IMG/VR virus record: IMGVR_UViG_3300033153_003354
Coordinates: 17,383-81,382 of that record
From: a virus
Length of the DNA: 64,000 nt
Reading direction: 5' to 3' (one strand)
The translations under genes were made by a program, and so were the position numbers. Below the pieces are notes generated by a model, which had not been told where the DNA came from, ran no database searches, and saw nothing but the letters and a program-made list of their open reading frames with translations. Shown here in pieces: positions 7 to 63,648 of this stretch (the stretch's first letter is position 1; each line of letters opens with the position of its first letter).

Positions 7-450
7 TTGGTTAGTGAAGGTGAACTTATCGATAATATAGAACCAATCATTTATGATCTTGAAGAAAAACCAGCAATAAATGAATATTTTGCTGGAAACA
101 GAAAATCCCTTGATGTGGATCCAGGAAAAGTTATATTTTATCTTCACGATAGTCATCACTACATGGATTTGATACCATCCTTGGATATAATTAAAGGAAG
201 AATAAAGGGAACTGACTATAGACCATGGAAATATTTATTTGGTATTTATAAAATGTTAGAAATAAATGAACCCATGAATGTCCCACGAACATTTTGGGAT
301 ATGAGTCGAGCACGAACAAAGGTAGCCGGAGATCAACCAAAGATGGAAAAAGAAGATGAAATAAAGATTAGTAAAGTTCAAATAGTAAAAGAAGTATTAG
401 GTGTTAAAAAGAAAGAATCTGATTCCAAAGGTTTAGATAATTTCTTTTAA
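7..450 (+). CDS. C-terminal part of a replication factor C large-subunit-like protein (probably truncated by the window edge)
   Basis: LDIIKGRIKGTDYRPWKY resembles the archaeal RFC-L C-terminal D-x-F-x-GR...Y-x-LW-x-Y segment; ends in a PIP-box-like KGLDNFF. Confidence 0.55.
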   Translation: MVSEGELIDNIEPIIYDLEEKPAINEYFAGNRKSLDVDPGKVIFYLHDSHHYMDLIPSLDIIKGRIKGTDYRPWKYLFGIYKMLEINEPMNVPRTFWDMSRARTKVAGDQPKMEKEDEIKISKVQIVKEVLGVKKKESDSKGLDNFF

Positions 451-451
451 T

Positions 452-513
452 GGGCATGTAGTCTAAACAATTGGCTTCGTCCATCGTGGGTTCAAGTCCT
501 ACCATGCCCGCCA
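452..513 (+). tRNA. Truncated tRNA-like element (62 nt, Arg(UCG)-like remnant)
   Basis: Perfect acceptor stem GGGCATG/CATGCCC, T-arm GTGGG-TTCAAGT-CCTAC, discriminator G, encoded CCA; only 27 nt between acceptor and T arms, containing TGG-CTTCGT-CCA. Confidence 0.6.
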
Positions 514-533
514 AAATATAGGAGAGCGAAAAT

Positions 534-821
534 ATGACACAACAAAAAATAACAAGACATCATGAAATAGCAGAAACTGAAGGACCAACAAAAGAAATAC
601 TCATTAAAATTAGTAGTGATGAGATTATTAAAAATGGAGGGTGTCCATATCAAATAATAACAACAAAATGGTCAATACAAAGAGATGAAATTACTGATGA
701 AATTACTATACAAGATAGTACATATACAGTATTAAGCAATCATCCAAATGCAATACATTTAATGAAAAAAATATTTCATGAATTAATGACAGTTGATTTT
801 TTTAAAGGAATAATGTATTAA
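534..821 (+). CDS. Hypothetical protein
   Basis: 95 aa ORF with GGAG RBS, between the two tRNA-like genes. Confidence 0.6.
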   Translation: MTQQKITRHHEIAETEGPTKEILIKISSDEIIKNGGCPYQIITTKWSIQRDEITDEITIQDSTYTVLSNHPNAIHLMKKIFHELMTVDFFKGIMY

Positions 822-828
822 ATTATTT

Positions 829-927: not shown

Positions 928-1038
928 ATGGCAACAAAAGGAAAACCAAAGAAAGATGGAAGCGGAAAAGGAACAAGAGATAATAGAGGTCGTGGTGGGT
1001 GTAAAACCACAAATAAAAAAGGTAAAGGTAAAAATTAA
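928..1038 (+). CDS. Small Lys/Gly-rich basic peptide (36 aa, MATKGKPKKDGSGKGTRDNRGRGGC...)
   Basis: AAGGAG RBS before ATG at 928; PKKDGSG-x-G...RGRGGC pattern typical of short basic peptides. Confidence 0.55.
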   Translation: MATKGKPKKDGSGKGTRDNRGRGGCKTTNKKGKGKN

Positions 1039-1090
1039 AGATAGGTTTATATACCACTATCACTATGTGGTACTTGCAACAGGTGAAACA

Positions 1091-3064
1091 TTGCGAGTAC
1101 CACGAATCGAAATTAAAAATGATAAGTTGGCCATTTATGCTCCATATCAACAAGATTTCATAAATGAATTAAAATATGAAACAATAACTAGAACATGGAG
1201 AAATGATTATTGGGAAGTTTCAATGTTAGAAGCTACCATAGCCATAGACATTGTTAAGAAACACTGGCCAAGAATCAAAGATGTTCCAGAAGTAGATGAT
1301 TTATCAACAATGCCTTTGGGATCATTGAACATCTCTGGAAATCAATTTATTATTATAGATTATCATGGAATAAATTGCCCAAAATTTAGAACAGAACTTC
1401 AGAATGTATTTTCAAGAACATTTTATTCTAAAGGAAATTGGACAATTAATATCATTAACAAAAATGTTTTAAAGATTATCATTGGGTTTTGTAACAAATT
1501 CAGGATTGCAATATCACGAAAAATAAAAGATGAAATACAATTCAGACTAGATGAATACAATTTAAATAAAGAAAAACGAAAAGAATTCATGGAAGCATCC
1601 AAAGCTACCAGATCAGCAGATGCAATAGATATTCCTAAACTTGGTGGAACTCTATATCCATTTCAATCTGCTGGTGTAAGATATATTGATAAAACAAGAG
1701 GACGTGCTCTCATCGGAGATGAAATGGGACTAGGAAAAACAATAATATCTTTGGCGTGGACACAACTTCATAATGAACAAACACCAGTGATTGTTGTTTG
1801 TCCAGCTTCACTAAAAAATAATTGGGCAAGAGAAATATTAAAATGGACAGAAGCAGATAAAGTAATAATAATTAATGGATCCACCAATATACGAAGTATT
1901 ACCAAAGATGATTTTAAAGGAAAAATAATTAAGGGCGATACCCCATTAATGGGTCACAGATACATTATTTTGAATTATGAAATGGTTAGTAAATGGAAAG
2001 ATAAAATTCTTGAGATCGACCCAAAGTGCATCATCCTTGATGAATGTCATTACATTAAAAATTATAAAGCAAAACGAACTATAAGTACAATAGATTTAGC
2101 AAAGTCTATTCCACATCAGATTGCATTAAGTGGAACTCCAATGTTAAATAAACCAATTGAATTATGGACAACGGTTAACCTACTTTCTCCAACAGTGTTT
2201 GATAATTTCATGGATTTTGCATACACCTACTGTAGTGCAAATCGTGGTGGATATGGATGGGATTTTAATGGTGCATCTAATTTGAATGAATTGCATGTTA
2301 AACTTGCAGAAAATTGTATGTTACGAAGATTGAAGAAGGATGTATTGGATGAACTTCCTGCAAAAACAAGAAACACAATCATCCTTGGTATGGGTGGTGA
2401 TGGTGAAAGACAATATAATAAAGCATATCATAATTTGTTAGATTTTTTGATAGAAGAAAAAAAAAAAACAAAAAAACAAGCAGATAGATCAATGACTGCT
2501 GAAGTTCTCGTTAGAATTGGTGCATTAAGACAAACAATCGCAAAAGCCAAACTTCCAGCAGCAAGAGAGTGGTTACACAACGCACTAGATAGTGGAATGG
2601 AAAAAGTTGTTGTGTTTGTTCATCATCACGATACCGTTGATGCTTTGTATGAAGAATTTAAAGATATTGCTGTTAAGGTTACTGGTCATGAATCAATTAA
2701 TGATAGGGATTCAAATGTACAAGCATTTCAAATGAACGATGATATACGAATGTTAATTGGGACATTTGGTGCTGCTGGAATTGGACTGACTATGACAGCT
2801 GCCTCTGATGTTGTAATGTTGGAACTTCCATGGAGGCCATCAGATTTAACACAAGCTGAAGATCGACTTCATAGGATTGGTCAAGAAAAGAAAGTTACTG
2901 CGTGGTACTTGTTAGCAAGTGACACCATAGATGAATATATGGCAGATTTACTTGAACGAAAAATGGCAATCGCATCACAAGTATTAGATGGAACTTCTGA
3001 TGAAGTAGTTGAGAATCTCAAAGGAGAATTCATTAAAATGTTAATGGATAAAGCAGAGGAATGA
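1091..3064 (+). CDS. SNF2-family (SMARCAL1/HARP-like) helicase/annealing ATPase
   Basis: LYPFQ, GDEMGLGKT, DECH, LSGTP, QAEDRLHRIGQ motifs; start moved to TTG 1091 because of AGGTGA RBS at 1081 and TTTATATA at 1046. Confidence 0.92.
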   Translation: MRVPRIEIKNDKLAIYAPYQQDFINELKYETITRTWRNDYWEVSMLEATIAIDIVKKHWPRIKDVPEVDDLSTMPLGSLNISGNQFIIIDYHGINCPKFRTELQNVFSRTFYSKGNWTINIINKNVLKIIIGFCNKFRIAISRKIKDEIQFRLDEYNLNKEKRKEFMEASKATRSADAIDIPKLGGTLYPFQSAGVRYIDKTRGRALIGDEMGLGKTIISLAWTQLHNEQTPVIVVCPASLKNNWAREILKWTEADKVIIINGSTNIRSITKDDFKGKIIKGDTPLMGHRYIILNYEMVSKWKDKILEIDPKCIILDECHYIKNYKAKRTISTIDLAKSIPHQIALSGTPMLNKPIELWTTVNLLSPTVFDNFMDFAYTYCSANRGGYGWDFNGASNLNELHVKLAENCMLRRLKKDVLDELPAKTRNTIILGMGGDGERQYNKAYHNLLDFLIEEKKKTKKQADRSMTAEVLVRIGALRQTIAKAKLPAAREWLHNALDSGMEKVVVFVHHHDTVDALYEEFKDIAVKVTGHESINDRDSNVQAFQMNDDIRMLIGTFGAAGIGLTMTAASDVVMLELPWRPSDLTQAEDRLHRIGQEKKVTAWYLLASDTIDEYMADLLERKMAIASQVLDGTSDEVVENLKGEFIKMLMDKAEE

Positions 3065-3190
3065 AAAACATGTCCATAAACGAAGAATACGGAAAGCAAA
3101 TGATAAACATGATAGATTGTGTATGTAAACAACCAGAATTGTCTTATTCTCGTTGTTTGATATGTCAAATGAAGAAATAGAGGGATAAAA

Positions 3191-3628
3191 ATGGTTAGAG
3201 TTGGAACATTAACTGGCGCAAGAAGAGAACGGATAGGAAAAATAACAATGAAAGAATTTTTCAGATTGGGAGAACAAATCAATGGTAAATTGACTGATGA
3301 TTTCCTTGATCCATTAAATTTTGATGAACAAATACATCTACAAATATTCATAGGAAATGAGGTAATATCGACAATGAAAGAAGATTTTGATACATCTACT
3401 GTAGAATCAATTTGTAATGAATTGATAAAAGAAATGGATTATATGAAAATACACAGAGAATTATTTGATCTTGGTAAAATAAATTATCAATTTGCTCCAA
3501 GACAAATTAACATATTCATTAAGAGAAACATACCAAAACAATTACTACATACTCGAAAAAACAAGAAAAATTTGTTGTTATTCAGTCCAAAGGGATTTAT
3601 GAATGACACTCTAGGAATTGAGGACTGA
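3191..3628 (+). CDS. Hypothetical protein
   Basis: 145 aa ORF continuing the helicase operon, converging with the tail module. Confidence 0.55.
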   Translation: MVRVGTLTGARRERIGKITMKEFFRLGEQINGKLTDDFLDPLNFDEQIHLQIFIGNEVISTMKEDFDTSTVESICNELIKEMDYMKIHRELFDLGKINYQFAPRQINIFIKRNIPKQLLHTRKNKKNLLLFSPKGFMNDTLGIED

Positions 3629-4693
3629 TACTAAATTGTATCTTTCTTCTCCAAGAACCAAATCACAAAACCAACCAGAAGAAGAATATTCATGGGTCAT
3701 AGAAACTACACGATATATTCTAGATGGTAATCGTTGTGTTCCATATAATCTATCATCTATGTAAACTATGGATCCAACTTCAACATCGTTCATTCCCCAA
3801 GTTTGTAACTCAACATTATATAATGGAACAGCAAAAATGTCAATGAATGAATCGGCAGCTAATTGTAATCCACTTTGACTTTGGATAGTATCATCATTGA
3901 TTGTTTTTTCTCTCCAGAATCCATATACATCATGTGAATTTTGTGAATATGAAACAACATCTGTCAAACCAGAAGATGTATATTTAATTCTATTAATGAT
4001 TGAACTAATATCCAAAGTTACTTTATCGGAAATCATTTGTGCATAATTTTCAGATGGTAAATAATTATAATATTTTTTACTTCCCAAGATCAATGATTTT
4101 GTAACATTTGTTTCAATAAGTTCCAGTGGTTCTCTTAATAGCATTGTTCCAACCAAAAAAGAATAAAACCACTCATACCCACCAATAGATGCCAATTTTT
4201 GAATTATATCCAATGATGCGTCTCTATCTGTAAAATCATAAGTAATTGAAATGTCTATTCCAGATGCCGAAGATAATAATGATGCTGGTCTTGATGTTTG
4301 TGTGTTTATATATTCAATGATTGTTTGGATTGTTCCGATTTGTTGTGAATATGGAACCATTAAATCATCTACAGTTAATTCTTTTTCCCAAACTTCTCCA
4401 ATTCCTTCTAATGGAACAGATAAAAAAGATCCACCAGAATCTATTGGTATTTCAATGGTTGATATTATTCCTTCAAATATTTTTTGTGGTGTTCCTGGTT
4501 CCCATCCAGCATATATTTTTACCGTTTCTCCACCTATTAATCTCACAGAATTTCTGCCCTTTGTATTATCAATTACTAGTGTGGCATCAGAAAGGGCATT
4601 TAAAGTATTATTAACAGTAAAAGAAACAAAATCAAAAAATGGGTCATCATCAATGAATATTTGTATTTCCGAAACTACTGCTAAATCACTCAT
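3611..4693 (-). CDS. Baseplate hub / tail-tip protein (P2 gpD / Mu gp44-like fold)
   Basis: Last gene of the tail module; VKIYAGW...IFEGII N-terminus and VEVGSIVYI...YRVVSMTHEYSSSGWFCDLVL C-terminus typical of hub proteins. Confidence 0.75.
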   Translation of the reverse strand: MSDLAVVSEIQIFIDDDPFFDFVSFTVNNTLNALSDATLVIDNTKGRNSVRLIGGETVKIYAGWEPGTPQKIFEGIISTIEIPIDSGGSFLSVPLEGIGEVWEKELTVDDLMVPYSQQIGTIQTIIEYINTQTSRPASLLSSASGIDISITYDFTDRDASLDIIQKLASIGGYEWFYSFLVGTMLLREPLELIETNVTKSLILGSKKYYNYLPSENYAQMISDKVTLDISSIINRIKYTSSGLTDVVSYSQNSHDVYGFWREKTINDDTIQSQSGLQLAADSFIDIFAVPLYNVELQTWGMNDVEVGSIVYIDDRLYGTQRLPSRIYRVVSMTHEYSSSGWFCDLVLGEERYNLVSVLNS

Positions 4694-7128
4694 AGTCCAT
4701 ACACCGTTAATCTTTCTGGATCAATTTCATGAACTTCTACAGAATATACATACACCAGGGGATCATCACTGGATATATCTGATGTATAATTCATCAACAC
4801 ACCCTTTATATCTCCATATCCTTCCAAATACCAAATTATTAATTTTCCGTTTGATTCTAGAAAATCAAATAAATCTCGCTCTGTTTCCGCTTGTTCTTTC
4901 ATTGCTGCATCTACTTCATTTCTAGATAATGTTGTAAAATTACAACTACTTCCATGATGTTCTCCACTTACAGAAAATATTCTTCCTCCACTTTTTGTAT
5001 GTTGTACCAAAGATTGTGTTGTTTCTGGTAGGTTTGTGTTTGATCCACCGGGATTACGAGATAATTTAATTCCCATTGGTGCAAATGCAGGGTCTATTCT
5101 AATGAATATTCCTTCGGAATCAAAAATATATATTGTACCAAATATATGTTCACTGTCTTGATTAGTATCATCTTGTACCCAAAATTCCCATGTAAATCCA
5201 ACATTATTTGGGGATTCCAACAATGGGTTGTTTGCTGTTTGATATACATATGTAATTAATGGATTGTTTGTTACTATAACACCCGACCCATCTCCTGGAT
5301 CGAAATAATAAATCAACGAACCACCTTCTGGATCTTCGGACAAAATTCCATTAAAAAAGGTATCTTGGTCAACAAATCCCGTGATTGGTGCAATTAAATT
5401 AGCTACTGGAATTTGATTTTGTACCCAAAAACTTCTTCCAATATATTGTGATGTTGCCATGAATGTTGGTGAATTATATTTATCAGTAACATATATTTGT
5501 AGTGGGAACACAGAAGTAATTGCATTTTCTTCAGATGTATAAGCATGTGTAATAGAAGGACTTGTTTGCCAACCATCTGTTATATCATCTCCCCAATCAA
5601 AATAAAAGCCTTGGTTCTCAAGTGGATCACCAGTTTCTAATTGTCCATATAGATTTATTTCATCTACTAACCATTCATCTTTTAATACATATGATGTACT
5701 CGTTTCTCCATCATATTCTAATCTTCCATGCCATAAACCAAATAATCCTCTTGATGGATAAGCATATTCAGATAAATCAAAAGATATAATGGGTGTTTTT
5801 GGATCGAGTGTTCCATCATCTACATAAATTCTAATTAAATCTATGGTGAATTTTACTATAAGTGTAAATGCACCAGATGTATCAATATCTCCTAATGTAT
5901 CACTTATTTTTGTTCTTGCATCGGGTCCATTTATGATCGATATTTCTGCATAATCACCCCACCAAAGACCTAAAAATATTCCAGTGTGCATACCACGATT
6001 TGGATAAGATGAAAGAACGGTTGTTCTAAATCCGGTTATTGTGTCTGGATTTCCAACGTGTAATGCTATTCCAGTGAATGGATGTTCTGCTATAGATTCA
6101 TTTATCGTGCATTCCATTTCAACAGTATAAAATCCAGAATCTAATCCTATATCTGTTTGCTCTATTGTTCTAATCATCCATTTATCTGTACTTGCGGTAC
6201 TTGATACTTCTGGAAATGTGATTTCACTTAATATTGGATTTGCCACAGTTTGATCAATTGGTTTATGAATAACATTTTCAAATTTACCCAAATCAGCACC
6301 ATCAAATAATTCTGTTAATGATGGTGTCGGTGAATTTGCTTGTATTGTTTGACTTGCATCAAACGTTTCTAACACACCGCCTTCTAATACAGTTGGAGAA
6401 CTTAAATGATTCCAAAATGATATTTTTGTGGATCTTGGTAAAACTGGAGCAAGACCAAAATTTCCTCTTCTCAATTCTGTTGGAACTTCCAAGGATGTAG
6501 CATATAAATATTGCCAAGGATATACTGCATAATCATTACCACCAGTATCTGCTGCTGTATTATCGGTTTCTATAAATATAGTTAATTTTCCAGGGTTTAT
6601 TCTTCCATCTATTTTGATGTTTCTCCATTCATCTTCTGGAATACCACCATCAGAACGAGCTTCACCCAAGTTAGAAACCGGAGAATCTGGGAATTGTAAT
6701 AAACTATTAAATTCGTGATAATAATAAAACGTTTCTGTTAGTGAGAAATGAATTCTCATTGCAGTAAATGGTTCATCATCACCAATATATCCAATTATCA
6801 CCCATAAATCTTTATCTTCAACTCCACCAGATACAAAATTCAATCCAAATTCCAAAGATGGATTCCAATTATCATATATATATGGTGATGTTGGTGTGTT
6901 TGATTCTGTTATTTTTGTTGTATCATCTGTTCCCCCGGTGATTGTTAAATATCCAGATCCTTCAACATACGAAGCACCACCAAGAACATCATAATCCCAT
7001 ACGGCTGTGTCTGGTGCTCCTGTTCCACCAAAATCATCATATACTATTATGTCTTTTTCTGTGTTATTCCATCCAACAATAGGTTGGACACTAGAAGTAG
7101 TTTCTACATAGTCTTTGGTATATGCCAT
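4690..7128 (-). CDS. Minor tail protein with lectin-like and PKD/Ig-like domains
   Basis: FYFDWGD...ITHAY and YYFDPGDGS...ITYVY PKD motifs; position between tape measure and hub; very acidic. Confidence 0.7.
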   Translation of the reverse strand: MAYTKDYVETTSSVQPIVGWNNTEKDIIVYDDFGGTGAPDTAVWDYDVLGGASYVEGSGYLTITGGTDDTTKITESNTPTSPYIYDNWNPSLEFGLNFVSGGVEDKDLWVIIGYIGDDEPFTAMRIHFSLTETFYYYHEFNSLLQFPDSPVSNLGEARSDGGIPEDEWRNIKIDGRINPGKLTIFIETDNTAADTGGNDYAVYPWQYLYATSLEVPTELRRGNFGLAPVLPRSTKISFWNHLSSPTVLEGGVLETFDASQTIQANSPTPSLTELFDGADLGKFENVIHKPIDQTVANPILSEITFPEVSSTASTDKWMIRTIEQTDIGLDSGFYTVEMECTINESIAEHPFTGIALHVGNPDTITGFRTTVLSSYPNRGMHTGIFLGLWWGDYAEISIINGPDARTKISDTLGDIDTSGAFTLIVKFTIDLIRIYVDDGTLDPKTPIISFDLSEYAYPSRGLFGLWHGRLEYDGETSTSYVLKDEWLVDEINLYGQLETGDPLENQGFYFDWGDDITDGWQTSPSITHAYTSEENAITSVFPLQIYVTDKYNSPTFMATSQYIGRSFWVQNQIPVANLIAPITGFVDQDTFFNGILSEDPEGGSLIYYFDPGDGSGVIVTNNPLITYVYQTANNPLLESPNNVGFTWEFWVQDDTNQDSEHIFGTIYIFDSEGIFIRIDPAFAPMGIKLSRNPGGSNTNLPETTQSLVQHTKSGGRIFSVSGEHHGSSCNFTTLSRNEVDAAMKEQAETERDLFDFLESNGKLIIWYLEGYGDIKGVLMNYTSDISSDDPLVYVYSVEVHEIDPERLTVYGL

Positions 7129-10100
7129 TATGGTCCCTCCGCTGAAAATCTCTTTAATCCACCTGTATCTACACCCACTACACCAACTGTGATGTAATCG
7201 AATGGATTATCTGTTGTTAAAATACCTTCTGAATCTTCTCCTACATCTGACCATGTAGATGTTGTTCCCAAAATAGGACTATCTATTATTGGAACCAATG
7301 TTTCTTCTATTACACCAACCAAATCCCATCTAACAAAATCTTCTTCTGGTGTTACATCATCTGTCCAATCCCATATAGCCCTTGTTTGTCCAAATGCAGT
7401 TGCATACCATGGAGTGGCATCTATTGCCACTGGTTGAATTGGAATATTTGTTTGCCAATTTTCAATATCAGAATCTATATTGTTTCCACTTCCATCTAAC
7501 AGTTTTACATAATATTCCATGTCTCTTCCAGATGGCCAAGTATCTTGTGTTGGATCAAATTCATGAATATCTGTTTGTAAAACAATCTCATGATAAAATT
7601 CTTCATAATATGTTGGTTCTATTTCTATGTTTTTAATATCCATATATTTGAAAACAGAATATGAATTTCTGGCATTAAATAATAATCGTCCTTTTGAATC
7701 ACTAATATTTGATGCATCAATATCAATATATTTTGTACTGTTTGCCCATATTTCAAAATGATCTTCTTTTTTTATGTATTCTATGGATATGAATCCAGCA
7801 ACTGGATCCAAAGGAATTGTTCCAGCAATTATGAAAGAAGAATCAATACCAGTTCTTAAATATCTTACAGTAAATGTATTATTATTATTTACAGTAAATC
7901 TAACATAAAATGATGGGGTTACATCATTATCAAAATCATCATCTGTTTGTAGTTGCAAAATTGTTGCTCCTGATTCAGCTTGCCAATCAAATGTTAAATT
8001 AAAATCTCTCATTTGTGATGTGTGTGTCATATATTTTTTTGGTGCAACAATAATATTATTTATATCAATAGCACCCTTTGCAAATAATCGTATGGTATCT
8101 ACTGCATTATATTCAAAATATCCTACTCCAGTGATAGTTAATTGTTCAATTAATTCTAACATTGCATCTTCATTTGCAAAATCAATATTCCAATTAGTAA
8201 ATGTCGTCCATCCCGGAGCACCAACATCACGAAAATATATTTCTGTTGTATCTGATTCTCCAGAAAAAGCACCCCATTCAATATTTATAAACGCAGAATT
8301 TATATCTAATAATACTAATGTTGGTTTTGAAGGATCGAAATTTGCTAATATACTAAACGAACTTAATCCAATTTCCCATTTATGTGTATTATTATCATAC
8401 GGAACTATTGCATACCAATATGTATTTCCAGAAATAGCAGAACTATCTTCCCATGTTTTATTTGTTGCTCCAACTATAGTATAAATTGGTGTCAATAAAC
8501 TAACATCACTGAAACTTCCATTTTCTCTATAAATTAAATAACCACCTGTATCAGAATCATGTGTATATATATTCCAATCTAATTCTACTTCGTTTGAAAA
8601 TATATTATTTGATAATATCAATGAAGTTACTCTTGGTGGTTTGAAATCTGTTGTTAAATTAAATGTTGTTAGTCCAGTAATGTGTTTATTTGTTTCATCA
8701 TCATATGGAACAACAGCATAATAATAAAGTGTTGCGTCAGATGGTGGGAAACCAGTTCCTTGATCGTTCAAATAAAGTTTCAAACTACCAGGAGTTATTG
8801 TATCAATTAATGTAGCCCCTGATGTGGCACTAAAATTTATTGTGTTTCTATATACTTCATACCCCAATACATCAGAATCTTGGGAATATCCACCCCAATC
8901 AAGATAAACACCATCTAATTCACGTTCATTTGTTATTATTAAAGAAGTTATCTTTGGTGGGCTAAAATCAGATGTGATGTTTACATTAGTTAATCCTTCA
9001 TCTATATAATTTCCTGAAGTATCATATGGAATTACTGCATAATAATAAATCTGATTATTATTTGGTCCATCTATAGCTGATTGTAAATCTTCAAATGTTT
9101 TAGTATTTGGGTTTGTTATATCTAGTAATTCTCCAGACATGGGAGTTGGTACAGTTGAAAATGGTGAAGTATCACGATATATATAATAACCATCTAGATC
9201 AGCCAAAGATGAATCGTATGTTGTCCAAGAAAGAACGAGTTTATTATCATCCCTATCATTGGTCAATATCATATCAGTTACTTTTGGGGGACTCATTTCA
9301 GCAAGAACTGATTTTGTTTCAAGTAAATCTACATGTTTATAACCATCTATATCTATTGGTATAATAGCATAGTAATATAAAGTTCCATTCACTGGAGTTG
9401 TATCTGTCCATTCTTTATCTGGTGGTGTTGCTGGACCAACAGTATGTATTGGTGTTAATACACTAGGAGTTGTGACATCTATGAAATTTGTTGTTTCTCT
9501 ATAAATTTCATAACTTCCAGTGTTCATATCAGATGGTGGTGAATATAATGGCCACTCTAAAAGAATTGAGTTTGTTCCATTCTGAACAGTTGGTTCTATT
9601 TGAGTAGAAGTCATTCTTATTGGTGACCAATCTGTTAGAACTTCCTCTACATTTAAATCTGTTAAATGTACCCCACCTTCTAAATCTTCACATACAACAG
9701 CAATATAATAATATTTATCATTATCAAATGTATCTAGATTTGAATTCCAAACAACACCAGCATCAATATCATATGTTTTTGTAGCTGGATTTGTTATTGT
9801 ACTTCCAGTAACTTCATATACTCCAGAATCAGTAGTAGCACTAAATGATGATTCACTCATATAAAGTCGATAATGATCGAAATCAGCTGGTGGTGTGTAT
9901 GTAGACCAAATAACTGTAACTTTATTTTCATCATTCACATTAGTTGCTGTTGGATCTACTCTGTCTGGAGCTGGATCTGTATATGTTATTTTTATGTATG
10001 GTTTAAGTACTGCATTTTCTTTGGTATAAAAATAAGCATTATTATTTATCAAAACATCTTCTGATTCAGATTTAATTAAAACAAAATATTCATCTTCCCA

Positions 10101-10553: not shown

Positions 10554-10557
10554 TTTA

Positions 10558-13798: not shown

Positions 13799-13811
13799 TT
13801 ATTTATCCTCC

Positions 13812-45642: not shown

Positions 45643-45723
45643 TTTGATTTATAGATTTGAAAAACCTACAAAACAACATAAAAGTATAAATAGAAGTTAA
45701 CCAATGATGAATTAGGTGAGAAA

Positions 45724-50733: not shown

Positions 50734-50737
50734 TCAA

Positions 50738-51318: not shown

Positions 51319-51683
51319 TTAATCACCCAGGACCGTCTTTGCCAGCAGATCCATAAGGACCGACATATTCATCTTCATTCTTCGCTTCTGATATAGTAAT
51401 CTTACCATCAGAGAATGTGATTTCCACCGTATGTTCATCTATTATATTTACTTTCATCTTTGGTTCACCTTACAACTACATATCAGTAGTAGTATATATA
51501 AGTATCTACCCAAAGATGAATTTAACATTTTATGATTATATGTAGTGATAAATTATTATTTTGTATTCATAAATGATTTATTGGTCCGTTGGTTTTACAA
51601 ATCAATGGATCAAAATGTAACACATCTTTGGATAACAAAGTTTATATATTTCTTGGGTGTTGTTACAATTAGGAGATTAGAAA

Positions 51684-54600: not shown

Positions 54601-57600
54601 GTGGTCATGTTTGTGAGAAGGTGGAATGATGAAAGGAACAATATATTTTCTAACACATGGAAACGAAAAACCAGAGATAATAACTTATGATGAAGTTGAA
54701 AATGAGGATCATTTCATGAATATGATGGTTGCAGCAGTAATAATCGGAAAAGAAGATGGAATATTCACGGATAAGGCGGTTGGATATTTCAATGGTGTGT
54801 GGTATCATGCCATACCTGAAAAGGAGGCCGAATAATAGCATGTTCAGAGTGTCCACACTGTGGTTGGATGGGTAATCAAATGACTTGTCCAGAATGTGGA
54901 TGGATTTGTGTATATGATGAAAGGGAGGAAGATCAATGAAAACAATAGAAGAAATCAGAGAATTTCTAGTGTCTAATGGGTATGAAATGAAAATAAATTC
55001 TACAAAATATATACAAATAAAACCAAATCAACACGAAGAATATCCCAAAACAATCTTTGGTTTGTCAAATAATGATTCTATTTATGGATCAGTTTGTGAT
55101 GGTTTTTCATGTACACGTGATGATAATCATGAAGGACCGCATGAGGCTGGATTTGAAACTGTAGCAGTTGCGTGGTGGACAACTAAAAATGTACCCAAAG
55201 ATGAATATATGGGTCCATTAGGTGATATGAGAGAACCAATGGTCGTTATATGTCCGAAATGTAAAGGACACGAATTTAATGTTGAATCATGTGATTTTTG
55301 TGAAAGAACTGGTACGATAATCTCATGGATGTTGGTTTCTGATCTTATGAAATGGTTAGAATATCATGCGTGTTATTACGGTTTTGTAAAGAAGGCGGTG
55401 CTTGCTATAGAAACAATAAACCACAAAAACGAAGATGAACAAGTGGATCCAAGTGAAGATAAAATATCATCATCAAAGTGTTCGAAATGTGGTTTTCTTT
55501 ATGAAGGAGAAATTCGAATATCTTGTCCCAACTGTGGATTAATCATTCCACAAGATTGTTTGATAAATAGTGTTGAATTAGATGAACATGACAAGTTAGC
55601 ATTAACACAGTATAAAGACAATGATCTTCAAAAGGAAATCAAAGTCGGAAAAAAGCAAGCAATAAAAAATATAAAATGTTTCTCTAGGAGAACGTTTGAT
55701 TAAAGGTGATTGAATGAAAATTGCATGTGAAGAATGTAGATTTTGGTTGAAAAATGAGCCGGATATAGGCAATTGTAAAAAATTACCTCCAACACCAAAT
55801 TTTGATTTTAGTGGACCAATATCACTGTGGCCCAGAACACGATCCAGAGATTGGTGTTATTCTGGTGAATATAAGGAGAGTGAATAAATGAAAATCATCA
55901 TTGAAGAAGATATTAAAGGAACAGGAACAGTAATAGATATAACAAAAAATGCCATAGTCATTGGATCTGGAAGATATGATATTATCATTTGTACCAATGC
56001 TTGGTTTGAAGATGTGTTTGAATGGGTTATGGATGATATAGATTGGTTGTTACCATTCTTTGGATATATTCAGTGGAATGTGGAGGAATAAAATGACAAC
56101 AGATAAAGTTTTTATAGAAGTATGTTATTGTATTGATAGGTGAAAATATGAGTTATGACATATATCTAATGGATCCACACACCGGAAAAAACCTTGAAAT
56201 TAAAAACAAACATACCATCTCTGGAGGAACATATTGTGTTGGTGGAACTGAACGTCTATGGTTGAATGTGACTTATAATTATGTCAAACATTTTAAAAAA
56301 GTTTTTGGAAAAAAGGAATTAGAATTATCTATGGGAAAACTGCTGAAGAAACAATTCCCATACTTAAGGATGCGATTTCAAAACTCGGAGATGATGTGGA
56401 TGATGATTATTGGAAATCAACCGAAGGAAATGCCAAAGATGCATTGAAAAATCTTCTTAAGTTAGCTGAACTTGCACCTGACGGAGTATGGAATGGTGAT
56501 TAAATGAAAATATCAGCAGGAGTATTCTTTTTATTCGGTTTCCTTTGTGCTACATTTGCATATGCAATACTTTCATTCCTCAACCCATCTGTGGATCCAT
56601 TGTTGATTTTGTGCAGCATTGGGTTTGTTGGTGGTATGTTTGGTATGATCTTCGAGAAAGGTTATGTTTTGTATAACGAAAACAAAGATGAAATAAAAAT
56701 ATTGTATGATAAATATAAATCAAAGATGAATATTGACCAATAAGTATAAATAGTAACATCATTATGTAGTTAGTAGGTGAAATAAAATGACCGACTTGAA
56801 AATAGATTTGAATGTTGTTGTTGAATGCAAAAACTGTGGCAATACACTTGATGTAGATTGTGATTTAGATGCACACCATCTTTGGATAAGTATGAAACCA
56901 TGTAAACATTGTATTTCAATTCTTGTTGAAGAATCAAAAGATAGAATTCAAGAACTTAATTCGATTGGACGAGATCAAGAAGAACGAATACGAGAAATGG
57001 AAGATGAATTAAGTAATAGATAAGGAACACAAAAAAATAACCAAACAAAAGGAGAAAAAAACATGAATGCAAAAGAAATAAAGGATTTGAAGTGGGTCGA
57101 GCTGAACGGAAAAAGATATTTGGCAAATGTCAACAAGGACGAAAGTGGAGTTACAACACTTGATAATTCTCTAGAAATCTATTCCATTGGTGGACATGAT
57201 AATAGGGAAGATTTGAGAAAGTATCTTGAAGTTAAGAATGTTGATGAACTCAAGACAATCACTGTAAGTGGAAACATCACTCTATCAGTCCAGGATCTCA
57301 CGGCACTACAGGTTGAACAGATGACAATGTTCGCAAGTGCAATGAAGAGAGCAAAAGACATTGATACCAAGATGTCTGAGAATGACCGTTATAGATCGTT
57401 CACGAATTAGACGGGATTATCCAGTCTTTTCTTTTTTCCAAAGGAGATGAAACATGTTCAAAACCCCTAATATAATGAAAAACAAAAATGACAAACCATC
57501 ATTGGTAATACCAAAAATATTTCTTGATAATGTATCAGATGAAGATATTGCAAAATTCAGTGATATGATATGTGAAGTGATGAAAGCTGGAGTGATTACA

Positions 57601-60600
57601 CCAGAAGAATTTAAAACTGAATATCCAATTGATGGCAACAAAATAATAATTGAACGTATGAATAAAGACGTAGATCATATCATGGGAGTAGATTGGGCCA
57701 CAAATGATGAATGGGGAATAACAGGATTCAAAGAAGGACATTGGTATGTTTACAGAGGAAAAGGAAATTCAGGGAATTGGAATTGGAATTCACAAGGTGA
57801 AATGGATTTTGTTCTTGATGGAAAACCACATCAAGTAAATAAATCTTTTAGTGATTGTGGTGCTTCATTTCATGATTCTACAGATCCTGAATGTTATTGG
57901 GTTTGGAATGATTTTTTGGAAGATTTCAAAGAAGTTCCATGCCCAACCAAAGACGAACCAATCAATATTTATGATTGCAAAGAAAAATGGACACAGATAA
58001 GAAGACAAGGCGGTAAATCAATATGTGCATTCTTACATGATCCAACAATTCCAGATGGTGTAAAAGAATATTTTCTTGACCAATTCAAGGATGATGTTAT
58101 AGATCCGATCAACGGGATATTGATTTCTGATGAAGATGCAACACCAATAATAAAAAATGTTTTACGTGAAATGGAAAAGCGTGAAATGGAAGGATTTAAC
58201 AATTTGGATATTTGTATGGAAACTGGAATATCTTTGGAACAAATAAACAGAGTATTAGAATTAATAAGGAAAAAGGAGAGGTAAAAATGGACAAAGAAGA
58301 AGATAATTTCTTATTAAAAAACATGAACATCATATCTGATGGTTTAAATACTGAAGAAGAAAAAATTGCACTTGCAAATATATCAACAATTTTAAAATTA
58401 TTATTGATTCAAATGCATCATATATCCAAATCGTATAGTTTAATTGCAAATTTTATAGAAACCGGAGAAGGACCAGATATTGAGATTCAAGAAAATGCTA
58501 GTTTTTATGGGTGATATTATGAAAACATGTGAATGTGGAAGAGAATTAATAGAAATGAATCTACCAATTGAAAATCCAGAAAGTGAAATTTGTTTATATT
58601 GTCATTTTCGGGAAAAATCAAAAAATGTCATACAAATGAATGACCGACAAATTTATACAAAGGTGTGAATAAATGAAACACTGGATAAAAAAGCAAGTAA
58701 CAAATTATAGAACTCCTTTATTTTTTGGCCTCATTAAGAGGAAATCAATTACAATTTGTACTGCTGTTTGTGGTAAAGAAATTAAAACTGACCAAATTGT
58801 AATTGATGATGAAAATTTCACTTCATATATGGGGATGGTTTCATGCCCAGAATGTAAAAAATATACGGATCTACGATTTGAAGAAAATAGAAGGATATAT
58901 GAAATTTCCAAAGATGAACACCCAGAATGTGAACATTATCATGGTTCTCCTTATGCTAACATATGTGTTCCACAAGCTCCTTGGTCGTGTAAACGAACCC
59001 AAATAGAAGGAAAATGCATCATGGAAAATCCATTTTGTGATTGTGAACATGCTGAACCAGAGATGGTTCTGACATGTGAAAAATGTGAAGGTGAATAAAT
59101 GTTAGAATGTCCACACTGTAATACAATGATCCAAAAAGCAGATAACTTTGCTGATGGGTTGAAAGGGAAGGCTAGAAAATCTCATAAAACAAAGGCAAGA
59201 AAAAAATATAAAGGAGATTTCATTTACAAACACTTTGGATTCAGTGGATCCAAGTCAGCACCGAAGAACGCCATGTCAGTAGATATATGTAAGAGCTGTG
59301 GGTGGACATCAGTTAATAGACGGGATGGTGTTAAATACACTAATACTGATGGTTTTGTAACAATTGCATGGAGAAACATGTTTTGTGGTTTGAATATTAA
59401 TTGGAAAGAGATCGTAAGAAGAAATGGGTGGTAAGTAAAATGGGATTATTTGATGAATCTTGTCCACATTGTGATGGAGGTATAAGAAGACCAATAGGTG
59501 GAGATTGGTGGGATTGTAACAAATGTGGCAGTTACGATGAGGGAGATGTGTATGGATTTGCTGCTGATATACTAATAAAATTAATAAAGGAACGTGAATA
59601 AAATGAACAAACTAAAAAAGTGGATCAATCAAATATTAGAAATAACAGAAAGAATCTTTTTAATGAAACCAGAATTAATTTCATGTAAAGAGTGTATGTT
59701 TTGTCTTGGGGAATTACCAGAGATAGAATGGGGTGGATTATGCCGAAGAAAACCACCAACAACAGATGAACAAGGTGATGCTGTTTGGCCAAGGGTTGAA
59801 GATGGGGATAGTTGTGGAGAAGGAATTAGGAGACAATAAAATGGAAATAATATGCACATCATTGGAATTAGATTGTTGTCCACATGGAATAACAAAAGAA
59901 TATGGTGTATCTGTTGAAGCATTCTTTAAATTTTGTGCTAATTGTATCTGTTCAGAAACACCACCACAACCAGTTACATATATTATTGATGAAACAGGAA
60001 TTAGAATTATTTGTAAAAGGTGTGGGTTATTATTTGAACAATTAGATAATGGTTGTCCAAATTGTGGATTATTATTGCCAAATTTACATAAACAATAATT
60101 ATATATACTATCACTTCAATAGGGTTGGTAGAGGTAAACAAATGGATCCAACCGACACACTAATAGATGAACACGAAGAAGGAGTACCAACCGAAGAAGA
60201 ACGTCAACAAATGGTTTTGACAGAATGTTATAGTGTTCTTGAAGAACATGGGATCACTGATGTAACAATTGAATTTCCAAATGCTGTTCGTAACTCATGT
60301 TTTTATCAGCACTTAAAGCGCAGGATTGCATTGTGTAAGAATTGGTTATATGTCAATGATGTTGAAACATTTATGGAAGAAGCTGCTTTACATGAGGTTG
60401 CACATGCAATAACAGATCATGTACATGGTTATGGTACAAAAACACATGGAAAAGAATTTAAGTCTATTGCACAATTAATTGGTGCTGCACCAGGATGTCG
60501 ATTTAAAGGAAATCTACCAACCAAATATGGTGGTGTAAGGTATTGTAGTGATTAAAATGAAAAAATTATGTGTTGGTTGTAAAACAGAATTAAAAACACT

Positions 60601-62549
60601 TGTAGATGTAATGTCGTTTGGTTCACAATCATATTGTGATAATGATAAATGTATGAGATTTGGTCTTGTTACATTAATGGTTATTAATATAGAAGATGAA
60701 CAAATGAAAGAGAGTGATTAGATGTATGAAACTGGAAATGAATTTAAAATAATACTTACAGATTATAACTGTCCACATAAACAAAATGGAAGATGTAAAC
60801 ACACGGGCAACATCACTGATGAACATGGTGTTGGGTTTAAATGGTGTGATGAAAAAATATGCCCGCTTAAAATTGGTGATTGAAATGACTAGAATGATTT
60901 GTGGAGAATGTGGTGAAACACTTTGCAAAGAACTAACAACCCATGATGGTTGTGGTAAATGTCATAATGAAAATTGTTCATTATTTGTTCCATTGGGACC
61001 ACTTTGTGGAATATAATTCATCTTTGGATGTGATTAAAATGAGTATTATAATATGTACTGATTGTGAGAAAAATGTAGATACTGATATTGAAACCATGAA
61101 TAATTTTGATTACAATGATGATGATAAAAGAGAAAATGTATCATATTGTGAAATATGTATGGAAGATCGATGTCGTTCATGTGGAAACATGTTGTGTAAC
61201 ACAAACAAATACTTCGAAGAAGAGAAGCACGAATATACAGGATATGGAAAAACTGAAACATATTGTGTGGGATACCATTGTAGTAATTGTGGTCATAAGG
61301 AGATGTTTTAAATGACAAAAGAAATGATAGATTTTGGAGAATGTAGAGAATGTTCTCTTAAAACAATGACTAGGAAATGGTGGGTTGAATTGGAACAAAC
61401 ATATGATGTAACATATAGTTATCTCCCAGATGTCTATTTAGTTACTGATTGTCCAAAATGTGGAAGAGAATTAAGATTCAACCCTCCTTGGACATGGATC
61501 ATAGAACGTGCATTCAGTATGGGTGGTTAAGTTTTTATATTTGATGTTCTATTACATCATTGGAAGTATAAAATGTTTGAAGAATCGTGTGATGAATGTG
61601 GTAAGGATGGTTTTGATTCTGATAGGTATATTCGTGTGCAGCAATGGCACGCATACAACTTTGAAGATACTCTTGAAAGAGTTTTCTGTTCAATAAAATG
61701 TATGAAAAAATATATCGAAGATTGGGATGATGATCAAAAAAATTGGAATGATGATTAAATGACAACTACATGCCCAAAATGTGGAACAAACTTGAAAAAT
61801 GCACCAGGAATAGGTCCATATTGTCCAAATAAAGAATGTGATGTATCAGATGGTGTTGATGGAACACTTGAATGTTTATCCAGAGATGATGAAATATTCA
61901 ATCCAAAACCAGAAGATTGTTCATCATGGGAAGAAATGTTTCCAGGTGGATACAAACCATTAACACGATTGGACAAAATTGAAATGTGGTTTTATGAGCT
62001 TCCTTACACAATCCCAAAGATGATTAGGAATATTTGTCGATGGTTGTTTTGGCCGAAGTGTGATATATGTGGAAAACCAGCATATTTTGAACATTGTAAT
62101 TTAAAATTCATGGGTAAAGAATTTGATCCTTCAATGCCAGAAGGTTGGTTTTATGTATGTTGGGAATGTAGTTTCAAATATAAAGGGTATGGTTCGGTGG
62201 AATAATGAAAATGACAAAAGAAACAGTTAAAAAAACATGTGATGGATGTTCTTGTGATGTGTCTGTTGTGTATGATAGAAAATCTAAATGTTGTGATATA
62301 TTCTATGTAATGGAATATGTTGATTGTGTCCCATTCGTAACAGAGATCACAAAAATGAGAGAAGAAAGTGAAATTTTACTATGTGATGAATGTGATTCAT
62401 CTTTGGGAATAAAAAATCAAATAGAAAACAATCTACTTGATTATGAAATAAGTAGACTTTCTTCAGAATCCTTTGAATTATATGACAAATCAATATCTAT
62501 GTTGAAAAGAATCATGGAATTAGGAGAAATGAAACACCAAAACATATAA
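51684..62549 (+). CDS. Long array of small early-type genes, many with Zn ribbons or single TM helices
   Basis: Dense plus-strand ORFs with GGTGA RBSs and repeated internal promoters; few recognisable families. Confidence 0.6.
52677..52838 (+). CDS. Second DnaJ-type zinc-finger micro-protein (53 aa)
   Basis: CNKCKGDG and CSKCNGTG. Confidence 0.65.
   Translation: MITVTHCNKCKGDGSYLTGGNRERKIYGPGGSQTFKTCSKCNGTGHVVKEVSK
53786..54088 (+). CDS. Conserved small phage protein (IFKY-x-L...MP.GSQILSV...IWA...GTG...VWHVF family)
   Basis: Recognisable motif pattern of a widespread phage family of unknown function. Confidence 0.7.
   Translation: MWSVTHMKDKRIFKYKLNIIDSQYIPMPQGSQILSVKEQNGTLNIWAIVDINNDNIKNRWFYIFGTGNEFDISLDDAKFIGTVVMSNGLVWHVFDGGETQ
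54114..54205 (+). ncRNA. GC-rich structured RNA with tandem H-type pseudoknots
   Basis: CACCTG/CAGGTG with CCCAGA/TCTGGG; TCACCG/CGGTGA with GTCCAGG/CCTGGAC; central GGGATC/GGTCCC hairpin. Confidence 0.65.
56148..56503 (+). pseudogene. Conserved phage protein (MSYDI...NVTYNY...DDYW..TEGNA...PDGVW family) interrupted at A-AAA-AAG
   Basis: The -1 frame after 56309-56315 gives GIRIIYGKTAEETIPILKDAISKLGDDVDDDYWKSTEGNAKDAL...PDGVWNGD*. Confidence 0.75.
57409..57437 (+). terminator. Hairpin plus U-tract terminator
   Basis: AGAC-GGGATTATCC-AGTCT then TTTCTTTTTT after ORF 57063-57410. Confidence 0.55.
60049..60555 (+). CDS. Second SprT-like zinc metalloprotease
   Basis: ALHEVAHA...HGKEFKSIAQLIGA; true start near 60142 after promoter and GAGGT RBS. 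Confidence 0.8.
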   Translation: MVVQIVDYYCQIYINNNYIYYHFNRVGRGKQMDPTDTLIDEHEEGVPTEEERQQMVLTECYSVLEEHGITDVTIEFPNAVRNSCFYQHLKRRIALCKNWLYVNDVETFMEEAALHEVAHAITDHVHGYGTKTHGKEFKSIAQLIGAAPGCRFKGNLPTKYGGVRYCSD

Positions 62550-62585
62550 ATATTACCATTATCATGTAGTGGTAGGTGAAATCAA

Positions 62586-62807
62586 ATGTCAGATAATAAC
62601 AACAACAACGTGTATGGAGGAGGAGTAGGAATAAGTTTTGTGGTATTCATAGTATTTTTAATACTCAAACTTACAGGAATGATTACATGGTCTTGGTGGT
62701 GGATAACAGCTCCGCTTTGGATTGGTTGGTGTCTATTACCATTAACTGTTATAATTATAGTGTTTGTTGTAATTTTAATTGTGTCTTTGATAACGGATAT
62801 TTGGTGA
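62586..62807 (+). CDS. Small phage membrane protein (LKLTG-x-I-x-WSWWW-x-x-APLW family)
   Basis: GGGVG...FLILKLTGMITWSWWWITAPLW signature. Confidence 0.8.
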   Translation: MSDNNNNNVYGGGVGISFVVFIVFLILKLTGMITWSWWWITAPLWIGWCLLPLTVIIIVFVVILIVSLITDIW

Positions 62808-62808
62808 A

Positions 62809-63648
62809 ATGATGTACAAAAAATATCCAAAGATCAGAAACATGACTTTCCTTCCCAATGGTGGACTTGAACTCATAAACAGGACAATCTATTGGACACT
62901 CAAGAGAGATGGTCAGAATATACCGTTTTGGTATCAGGAATCAACAGATTCAGTTATCTTTGGATCACGAAACAATAGAATACCCAAAGATGAAGGATTT
63001 ATACGAGAAGTAAAAGCATCCATAAATTATGATAATGTTCTTAATATGGTCAAGGAATTTAGAGGATGGGTTTTCTATTTTGAACACATGATGAAAGGAA
63101 CCGGACCATGTAAGATCGAAGAACCAAGAGAAGAACCATATCTTGTTCTTATTGATATTTATAATGAAGAACATGATATATTTATGAATTATAATGAATT
63201 AAAAGAATATTCTTGTGTATTTAATATCCCACTTGTAGAATTATGGAGTAAGCAAACACCAATCACGAAAGAAGATATATTTAACATGGTAGATAAATTA
63301 TTGAAAGATTGTAAGGAACATAAATTTGAAGGTGTGGTTGGAAAAGTATATGATTCAAAACCACAATATATGTTCAAAGAAAAAATTAGTCTTCCAAAAA
63401 CAAAAAAGGAAAAAACTAAATCAAAGAAGAACATCATTGTTTTACCACCACTTACAGACGATCAGGTATTTTCGGCCATTGGACAGGCATTTGTTGAATG
63501 TGAAAGAAATGGTTATGATGTCAAAGATCCAAAACTCACAATGCCAATAGTGGTTAACCATGTTAACACACAAGCAGATGAACACAAATGTTCTTCTCCG
63601 GCAGAGATATTTATATATTATAGAAAATATTTGGAGATGAATCATTGA
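62809..63648 (+). CDS. ATP-dependent RNA ligase (Rnl2-like)
   Basis: KYPKI, motif I KRDGQN, GSRN, FYFE, IDI, EGVVGK, FK. Confidence 0.8.
   Translation: MMYKKYPKIRNMTFLPNGGLELINRTIYWTLKRDGQNIPFWYQESTDSVIFGSRNNRIPKDEGFIREVKASINYDNVLNMVKEFRGWVFYFEHMMKGTGPCKIEEPREEPYLVLIDIYNEEHDIFMNYNELKEYSCVFNIPLVELWSKQTPITKEDIFNMVDKLLKDCKEHKFEGVVGKVYDSKPQYMFKEKISLPKTKKEKTKSKKNIIVLPPLTDDQVFSAIGQAFVECERNGYDVKDPKLTMPIVVNHVNTQADEHKCSSPAEIFIYYRKYLEMNH

Follow-up and report, generated by a model that had tools for sequence, protein, structure and literature searches.

The DNA analysed here (the window) is a 64-kb stretch, bases 17383–81382 of an 81,382-bp IMG/VR record (IMGVR_UViG_3300033153_003354) from an uncultivated tailed virus of archaea, and it is studded with copies of a 9-mer, CCRAAGATG (CATCTTYGG on the other strand), hereafter the word. 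With A at the R position the word reads CCAAAGATG/CATCTTTGG and with G it reads CCGAAGATG/CATCTTCGG. The over-representation is real, the word is selected as DNA in every reading frame and on both strands, and its placement is partly stereotyped around promoters. An initial annotation had proposed a dispersed protein-binding or marking system acting at the DNA level, and this is the best supported reading, carried by enrichment in all six frame and strand classes, codon choice bent towards the word, an excess in intergenic DNA, and placement at B recognition elements (BRE) and TATA boxes. Whether the copies are, more specifically, the landing sites of a virus-encoded sequence-specific DNA-binding protein, with one subset at promoters and a larger subset within genes that is kept for its number, we regard as about evenly poised. 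We infer that a protein reads the word, that this protein is viral, and what its binding may do.

Over-representation and anatomy of the word

In the window the word has 51 exact matches, 39 with A and 12 with G at the R position, while dinucleotide-preserving shuffles of the window (n = 100) gave a mean of 1.06 (sd 1.07, max 5) and none of them reached 51. All 39 coordinates that the initial annotation had given for the A form are exact, and so are its 11 copies of the G form; a twelfth G copy at 44612–44620 had been overlooked. The contexts of the copies confirm that they lie on both strands and both within and between genes. The density was also correctly seen to be highest after 46 kb, where genes are small and non-coding stretches long; the last 18 kb hold 24 of the 51 window copies (1.33 vs 0.59 per kb before). 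CpG is indeed scarce (observed/expected 0.52).

The whole contig holds 60 copies, 1 per 1.36 kb. CATCTTTGG is its commonest 9-mer (46 occurrences), and the first 9-mer that does not overlap the word is A-rich with 21 copies. When the word was masked, no second over-represented word of comparable strength was found in the whole contig. Markov simulations of the whole contig (100 runs each) gave 1.5 ± 1.3 copies at order 1 and 3.9 ± 2.2 at order 3 against the 60 observed; at order 5, which already holds the pieces of the word itself, the figure was 14.3 ± 4.1 (max 27). Within genes there are 48 copies, compared to 2.1 ± 1.5 (max 7) after codon shuffling within genes and 9.2 ± 2.5 (max 16) after synonymous-codon shuffling (200 runs each). 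Under codon-preserving nulls, on which the initial annotation had staked its claim, the enrichment hence stays, and the word is the top outlier among 9-mers.

The nine positions are all-or-none save for R at position 3, and the flanks carry at most 0.4 bit. One-off variants are 2–6-fold over expectation, as with G at position 4 (6 vs 1.0), T at position 5 (12 vs 3.2) and A at position 9 (11 vs 3.0). The word is asymmetric and has no partner half-site. Spacing is near random, with a coefficient of variation of 0.96 and a largest gap of 5,087 bp; no regular spacing was found, four gaps of 55–60 bp comparing with about 2.5 expected by a rough estimate. Over the whole contig 39 copies are on the plus and 21 on the minus strand, following gene direction. 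The ratio of sense to antisense copies is 29:19 over all called genes and 21:11 in genes of at least 150 aa, where the expectation from codon compatibility is 0.73 (p = 0.22), so that no orientation bias beyond codon compatibility is seen in these long genes. Nine copies lie between called genes and three on gene edges (12 of 60). As intergenic DNA is 6.2% of the contig this is an approximately 3-fold enrichment, and the count is a lower bound as several of the copies scored as in-gene lie in low-confidence small open reading frames (ORFs). The gene calls come from a home-made finder and are uncertain for small ORFs.

Selection acts on DNA and not on peptide

The check on all reading frames that the initial annotation had suggested gave 14–53-fold enrichment in each of the six frame and strand classes. 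The three sense frames hold 4, 24 and 1 copies where 0.29, 1.20 and 0.04 were expected, and the three antisense frames hold 5, 11 and 3 where 0.10, 0.32 and 0.06 were expected. Among the 47 genes of at least 150 aa the enrichment across the six classes is 11–43-fold. As the enrichment is similar in all classes the word is selected at the level of DNA, not as a peptide, and its uniformity over both strands and all frames excludes a function at the RNA or peptide level. One frame, xCC RAA GAT Gxx, holds 24 of the 29 sense copies and is the frame most often allowed by codon usage. The corresponding tetrapeptides, [SPTA][KE]D[VADEG], number 44 compared to 18.9 expected, and 25 of these 44 are spelled with the word where codon usage predicts 2.9.

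The word is put where proteins tolerate it. Two sense copies in the large terminase gene, 30133–31713(−), are at 31356–31364 (CCGAAGATG) and 31578–31586 (CCAAAGATG), both on the minus strand in frame 1, and fall in variable protein stretches at positions that are variable or gapped among 20 homologues. A single antisense copy in the same gene (31298–31306) encodes a conserved I-I-F-G.

Placement at promoters and start codons

The intergenic DNA of the contig bears archaeal-type promoters, a purine-rich BRE followed by TTTATATA, and archaeal activators usually bind upstream of these elements. TATA-type hexamers are found 11–25 nt upstream of CCRAAGATG at 19 places compared to 3.9 for random sites, and a strong TATA box starts 13–26 nt upstream of it at 7 of 60 copies, compared to 1.16 expected genome-wide. 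Read on the other strand, the layout CATCTTYGG-N0-16-TATA is present at eight exact copies (9203, 31298, 35929, 47829, 49456, 51510, 51623, and 54208) and at two one-off variants (48685 and 53688), and the intervening nucleotides are often BRE-like purines. One-off variants are weakly enriched at promoters (4 of 86 vs about 1.7 expected). The shortest gaps between word and TATA box are such that an occupied word would also occlude the BRE. Many canonical promoters have no copy, and the word is therefore not a general promoter element.

Site coordinates are window positions of exact matches to CATCTTYGG, strand signs of these copies refer to CCRAAGATG, and gene contexts follow our own gene calls. 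Three of the eight copies share a layout of word-N8-10-TATA-N35-36-ATG with a Shine-Dalgarno (SD) sequence. The first (51510–51518, +) reads CATCTTTGG on the minus strand, 8 nt upstream of the TATA box of a 45-codon ORF, 51463(−), whose ATG follows the TATA box by 36 nt. The second (51623–51631, −) reads CATCTTTGG on the plus strand, 9 nt upstream of TATA 51641–51648 and 35 nt from TATA to the ATG at 51684, where a hydrophobic small ORF behind a canonical BRE/TATA promoter looks like a better gene model than the automatic call. The third (54208–54216, −) reads CATCTTTGG on the plus strand, 10 nt upstream of TATA 54227–54234, with 35 nt from TATA to the ATG of gene 54270. Directly beside this copy and its TATA box lies a GC-rich stretch of about 90 nt (54114–54205), which had no Rfam match.

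Of the remaining five, the copy at 35929–35937 (−) reads CATCTTTGG on the plus strand, 5 nt upstream of TATA 35943–35950 in the promoter of the next plus-strand gene, and the copy at 49456–49464 (−), again CATCTTTGG on the plus strand, abuts a TATA-like box. Three CCAAAGATG copies on the plus strand read CATCTTTGG on the minus strand: at 47829–47837, 10 nt upstream of a BRE/TATA-like box beside a region of putative iterons; at 31298–31306, within the terminase gene and 13 nt upstream of a BRE/TATA-like box; and at 9203–9211, 16 nt upstream of a TATA-like box within the 1141-aa tail gene. The reverse orientation upstream of a TATA box is also present. The CCGAAGATG copy at 46174–46182 (+) abuts one TATA-like box and precedes another, TATA 46203–46210, by 20 nt, the CCAAAGATG copy at 49558–49566 (+) is 14 nt upstream of TATA box 49580–49587, and a third copy, CCAAAGATG at 6852–6860 (+), is antisense in frame 1 of gene 4690–7128(−).

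Some copies also lie at gene starts. The ATG of the word is the start codon in two genes, the 45-codon minus-strand ORF with an SD upstream (51455–51463, −) and a 76-aa gene with its ATG at 52980, an SD upstream and TATA at 52935–52942 (CCAAAGATG, 52974–52982, +). In two others the word fills codons 2–5, i.e., in gene 51883–52299 (CCAAAGATG, 51887–51895, +) and in ORF 46623–46814 (CCAAAGATG, 46627–46635, +); the latter, with 63 codons and an SD upstream, again looks preferable to the automatic call. The densest cluster is a 281-bp region, 49459–49739, with four copies, of which the one at 49456–49464 is the first; the last two lie around the start of a SprT-like zinc-protease gene with a zinc-ribbon tail (P0026, 49692–50306, +), one (49675–49683, −) reading CATCTTTGG on the plus strand 8 nt upstream of its ATG at 49692 and the other (49735–49743, −) lying in codons 15–18 of the 204-aa model. 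The region 51319–51604 has two copies, and there are more at the edges of both regions. Among one-off variants, two (48654–48662 and 48677–48685, −) flank a BRE/TATA-like box facing the histone-like gene 48143–48583(−), and CCAATGATG (45701–45709, +) lies 8 nt downstream of a TATA-like box, just before the SD and ATG of gene 45724–46044.

Words in distant relatives

CCRAAGATG is a private word: of the contigs searched, this virus alone is enriched in it. Portal relatives hold 0–3 copies and 31 of 49 loci have none, and a scan of IMG/VR for divergent word pairs 35–65 nt apart returned 27 contigs with 2–4 copies each, which is the chance level, and no other enriched contig. Two distant portal relatives from IMG/VR (L003 and L013; portal identity 33%) share another word, CTGAGRAG, with 14 copies vs 1.7 and 13 vs 0.72, respectively, in dinucleotide shuffles. 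In L013, six of the copies are in a non-coding region amid TATA-like boxes, and L003 replicates the L013 word independently. The two loci are 60% identical in DNA over 4,058 aligned columns and have only 2 of 11 CTGAGRAG positions in common, which indicates that the number of sites is kept while their places turn over. In a further relative, L047, the word TTCTGGAG occurs 13 times compared to 1.07 expected. These words were chosen as the top k-mer of each locus. The absence of other enriched contigs together with the different word of the relatives fits a viral reader, and equally a reader specific to the host.

The pattern with other words in L003/L013 and L047 bears on a broader idea, which we put forward tentatively and consider rather doubtful, namely that it is common for viruses of archaea and related elements to have a private word, a short asymmetric site at about one copy per kb, kept by number and read by a protein encoded by the element. 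Such a protein might sit on a class of promoters and be soaked up by the copies within genes, and replication of the genome might then shift the balance and time the gene programme; alternatively, the word might mark the viral chromosome as self. If this were true, archaeal mobile elements would share a general regulatory principle that has gone undescribed, and the word would be more than a peculiarity of a single contig.

A proposed DNA-binding protein as reader

In the reading that we favour, CCRAAGATG would be recognized by a single sequence-specific DNA-binding protein, and the virus most likely encodes it. As the site is single, sharply bounded and asymmetric and has no partner half-site, this reader probably binds as a monomer; graded tolerance of one-off variants, clustering in the control region and placement at promoters are the traces that a monomeric DNA-binding protein is expected to leave. 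Bound at the copies by promoters or start codons, it would raise or lower initiation of transcription. The approximately 45 copies without promoter context would be kept by selection for their number and not for their exact place, and would give the same protein additional places to land along the whole chromosome, where it may be loaded, held or titrated; copies within genes might also act as roadblocks or nucleation points. Occupancy of the promoters might then shift as the genome is copied.

Several of the readers named in the initial annotation fared poorly. Pfam searches with 69 small proteins gave no ROS/MucR and no AbrB match, although by eye the N-terminus encoded at 33237–33368 looks AbrB-like. 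The match behind the histone call (PF00808, E = 0.0045) is weak and falls below the cut-off. The methyltransferases are improbable readers since solved members of the PF01555 family are small enzymes, for which reading 9 bp is unlikely; small methyltransferases of this kind read short sites of 4–6 bp. A candidate reader, or else a target, of the word is the zinc-ribbon protein P0026, one of two SprT-like paralogues (32% identical), whose gene adjoins the densest cluster. Other candidate readers are the second paralogue (60142–60555), the 179-aa protein 34844–35383, the winged-helix protein 35386–35790, the AbrB-like ORF, the histone-like protein, and small proteins whose promoters bear the word (the 45-codon ORF at 51463, 52980–53210, and 54270–54476).

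A number of observations weigh against a viral DNA-binding protein as the explanation. About three quarters of the copies (approximately 45) have no promoter context, and the link to gene starts is not significant (15 of 60 vs 10.4 expected within −80 to +30, p = 0.08). Within intergenic DNA a TATA box already occurs in the test span at a baseline of 6.8%, and TATA-like boxes are near-symmetric, so that the direction at some sites rests on BRE-like bases and the gene that follows. A Markov-3 test with Bonferroni correction keeps CTGAGRAG only in L013 (6e-3) and not in L003 alone, and it keeps CCRAAGATG in only one of four 20-kb pieces, which marks the test as conservative. The nearest relatives are too remote (terminase 41%, portal 35% identity) to give a basis for site-by-site conservation of CCRAAGATG. 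No protein is tied to the word, as Pfam found among the 69 small proteins only one winged helix, the two SprT-like proteins and zinc ribbons. The SprT-like protein has only 3 homologues in 1.84 billion representatives and none in a word search, neither paralogue has usable relatives, and the family is encoded in none of five word-bearing fragment records (15–83% complete). BLASTP between this virus and word-bearing relatives, where a shared reader might appear, matched only the portal, the terminase, two tail-region proteins and one methyltransferase.

Alternative explanations

The alternative that survives best, albeit an unlikely one, is a host-wide signal copied by the virus, perhaps a site bound by a transcription factor or a chromatin protein of the host, a hotspot of recombination or a word of the DNA-uptake type. 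The density of 1 per 1.36 kb with near-random spacing is like that of uptake sequences, the turnover of CTGAGRAG places in L003 and L013 is what selection on density would give, and different words in different viruses fit different hosts as well as different viral readers. On the other hand strand and orientation show no skew that codon compatibility would not explain, unlike Chi or KOPS, no terminator-like inverted pairs of the word were seen, and the copies concentrate in the early/control region (1.33 vs 0.59 per kb), stereotyped by the virus's own promoters.

Somewhat less probable still is that a virus-encoded enzyme, an N6/N4 methyltransferase or a radical-SAM protein, modifies the DNA at the word, which would serve as a dense self-mark or be maintained by biased repair of the kind proposed for HIP1. 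The contig does encode four PF01555 methyltransferases and two radical-SAM-like proteins, and two of the methyltransferase genes adjoin a radical-SAM gene. A contiguous, non-palindromic 9-bp site would be unusual for an enzyme of 240 aa, as the sites of such small methyltransferases are typically 4–6 bp. The one-step neighbours of the word are not depleted (TCAAAGATG 8 vs 3.4, CTAAAGATG 1 vs 1.5), a comparison of low power, and modification alone leaves the fixed places beside TATA boxes unexplained. For haloarchaeal tailed viruses the presence of a methyltransferase is described to go with a high frequency of its short motif (PMC8651126), which would favour a modification target here. What Liu et al. 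link to virus methyltransferases is whether short motifs such as GATC are present or purged (PMC8651126), a separate matter from a 9-bp word.

We consider it quite improbable that the word serves another DNA transaction, such as priming, nicking, packaging or recombination. The spread over the whole genome, structural genes included, would suit such a role, and an HNH endonuclease gene (50365–50733) lies between the two densest clusters. However, both orientations are equally enriched on both strands, whereas priming, nicking and the guides of translocases are strand-specific in the cases we know; the uniform enrichment over strands and frames argues against all of these as well as against Chi and classical stoperators. 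Moreover, the putative origin carries an iteron of its own, different from the word.

There is a negligible probability that the word owes its excess to codon or dipeptide usage, to a protein domain that recurs or to a small mobile repeat: the single favoured frame (24 of 29 sense copies) and the 9.2 copies left by synonymous shuffling speak for such an origin, but the 20-fold enrichment of that frame is no higher than in the other five classes (14–53-fold, or 11–43-fold in long genes), the copies are found between genes too, and the flanks are without information, which leaves neither a domain nor a mobile element. Accordingly, a codon or peptide artefact was rejected on the codon nulls and the six-class enrichment, and a repeat family or mobile element on the flanks.

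Other copies and features of the contig

The other copies of the window lie mostly within genes. Sense copies of CCAAAGATG in frame 0 are at 337–345 in gene 1–450(+), 32903–32911 in gene 32555–33178(+), 56433–56441 in gene 56148–56447(+), and 62014–62022 in gene 61759–62205(+), all on the plus strand. In frame 1, plus-strand sense copies of CCAAAGATG are at 1902–1910 in the SNF2 helicase gene 956–3064(+), 35100–35108 in gene 34844–35383(+), 35841–35849 in gene 35783–35926(+), 42404–42412 in gene 42289–42516(+), 42541–42549 in the intein-bearing methyltransferase gene 42513–44657(+), 45434–45442 in the radical-SAM-like gene 44689–45642(+), 55195–55203 in gene 54936–55703(+), 58908–58916 in gene 58673–59098(+), and 62984–62992 in gene 62812–63648(+); on the minus strand they are at 17187–17195 in gene 16822–17421(−) and 18025–18033 in gene 17861–18082(−). 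The CCGAAGATG form is sense in frame 1 at 10602–10610 (−) in the tape-measure gene 10558–13134(−), 28772–28780 (−) in the portal gene 28008–30056(−), 37782–37790 (+) in the AAA ATPase gene 36794–37954(+), and 51216–51224 (−) in gene 51067–51318(−), and in frame 2 at 44612–44620 (+) in the intein-bearing methyltransferase gene. The CCGAAGATG copy at 38194–38202 (+) is between called genes and may fall in ORF 37941–38597.

Antisense copies in frame 1 are at 15689–15697 (CCAAAGATG, +) in gene 15258–15752(−), at 17799–17807, 20008–20016, and 22468–22476 (CCGAAGATG, +) in genes 17425–17868(−), 19526–20251(−), and 22067–22576(−), at 32847–32855 (CCGAAGATG, −) in gene 32555–33178(+), and at 61019–61027 (−) and 62398–62406 (−) in genes 61006–61311(+) and 62205–62549(+). 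In frame 2 they are at 24431–24439 (CCAAAGATG, +) in gene 24154–24705(−) and 53971–53979 (−) in gene 53804–54088(+), and in frame 0 at 56877–56885 (−) in gene 56787–57023(+). The CCAAAGATG copy at 49362–49370 (+) is antisense in a low-confidence 49-codon ORF, 49309–49458(−).

The whole contig (33.0% GC, linear, CheckV completeness 60%) encodes a Mu-type portal, a large terminase, a tape measure and tail genes including the 1141-aa one, together with a family-B DNA polymerase, an RFC small subunit, an XPF-type nuclease, the SNF2 helicase and a glycosyltransferase. The four methyltransferases (one with an intein) and two radical-SAM-like genes are accompanied by two TnpB-like genes, an HNH gene and two SprT-like genes. 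The Atlas clusters nearest to the RFC gene are archaeal and come from several phyla. The best relative of the terminase is 41% identical (among 5.8 billion clusters) and that of the portal 35% (in IMG/VR); named phage records gave no DNA match and only distant terminase matches, and by sequence this is a virus without close kin on record. An Rfam scan found only the tRNA. A tRNA-Arg(TCG) gene lies at 829–907, and a tRNA-like sequence upstream of it (451–533) ends in CCA; the latter was called neither by ARAGORN nor by Rfam.

Next to the histone-like gene, non-coding DNA holds four copies of the repeat CTACCAATTG(A), at 47531, 47597, 47674, and 47940, and a further copy is at 58561; these repeats are probably a set of origin iterons, distinct from CCRAAGATG. 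Two of the four N6/N4 DNA methyltransferase genes adjoin radical-SAM-like genes, and one methyltransferase is split by an intein with a LAGLIDADG domain. The methyltransferase and radical-SAM regions span 42513–45642 in the window and 1361–3432, 8809–10893, and 13370–14020 in the upstream locus of the same contig (L051), and this neighbourhood could be a DNA hypermodification module. Several restriction-type palindromes are missing from the whole contig, CTGCAG (0 vs 12.9 expected), AAGCTT (0 vs 7.9), ACCGGT (0 vs 5.1), and CGCG (0 vs 8.5), which looks like avoidance of host restriction sites and may be a clue to the host. One TnpB-like gene (Cas12f1-like TNB domain, E = 9.5e-26) follows the short AbrB-like ORF in the region 33237–34375, and the second, 54936–55703, is shorter with a weak match. 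The flanks of both TnpB-like genes are free of word copies.

Comparison with known systems

To our knowledge almost nothing is known about gene control in archaeal tailed viruses, and a search of the literature (open-access main texts) turned up no account of a comparable word in a virus of archaea. A word that is written about 60 times into unrelated genes, at 14–53 times chance in every frame, offers a strong and directly testable handle.

Over-represented 8–10-mers are well known from cellular genomes, where USS/DUS uptake sequences often form terminator pairs, Chi is strand-skewed and HIP1 is a palindrome. The word is like these in being a genome-wide 8–10-mer kept by number at about one per kb, and it is unlike them in belonging to a virus genome and in having neither strand skew nor palindrome nor terminator pairs. 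A skew of the Chi or KOPS type is absent, as all four strand and orientation classes are enriched alike. The likeness to HIP1 suggested in the initial annotation is not supported, the word being no palindrome; for one-step neighbours no depletion was seen, with expected counts too small to reveal one.

DnaA boxes, including those of the datA locus, are asymmetric 9-mers bound by a monomeric domain in both orientations, and they act at promoters as well as in a titrating sink. The word shares with them its length, its asymmetry, its occurrence in and between genes and its two orientations. It differs in that the likely origin bears another repeat, CTACCAATTG(A), in that the word is far denser, and in that no DnaA-like protein was found in the contig. 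Sites of archaeal upstream factors, such as Ptr2 or TFB-RF1, are matched by those copies that, at several promoters, immediately precede BRE/TATA and keep a fixed orientation. Unlike such sites, however, the word is not confined to promoters, with 8 exact copies of 60 so placed and 48 of 60 inside called genes.

Among described systems the operator/stoperator network of Cluster A mycobacteriophages comes closest, and the word resembles it without being a member. Stoperators are 13–14 bp long and the 9-bp word is shorter. The virus is of archaeal type with BRE/TATA promoters, many copies lie upstream of these elements, a typical place of activators in archaea, and neither a repressor family, by Pfam, nor a homologue of the repressor was found. 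In the accounts of phages L5 and Bxb1 the network comprises 20–30 asymmetric repressor sites that are mostly outside promoters and specific to the lineage (PMC6550527; PMC9283540). As described there, the likeness extends to a short asymmetric site repeated tens of times over the genome of a tailed virus with few copies at promoters and most elsewhere, to consensus words that differ between phage lineages as the private words do here, and to a repressor that is monomeric, as proposed for the reader of the word. Stoperators are described as predominantly in one orientation relative to transcription (PMC6550527), whereas the orientation of the word follows codon compatibility only (sense:antisense 21:11, 0.73 expected, p = 0.22). 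This feature of the stoperator-like network envisaged in the initial annotation is thus absent, and because of it we do not file the word as a stoperator. If the reader is viral and the copies within genes are functional, the stoperator idea would be extended to archaea in an orientation-free form, and a switch coupled to copy number would be suggested.

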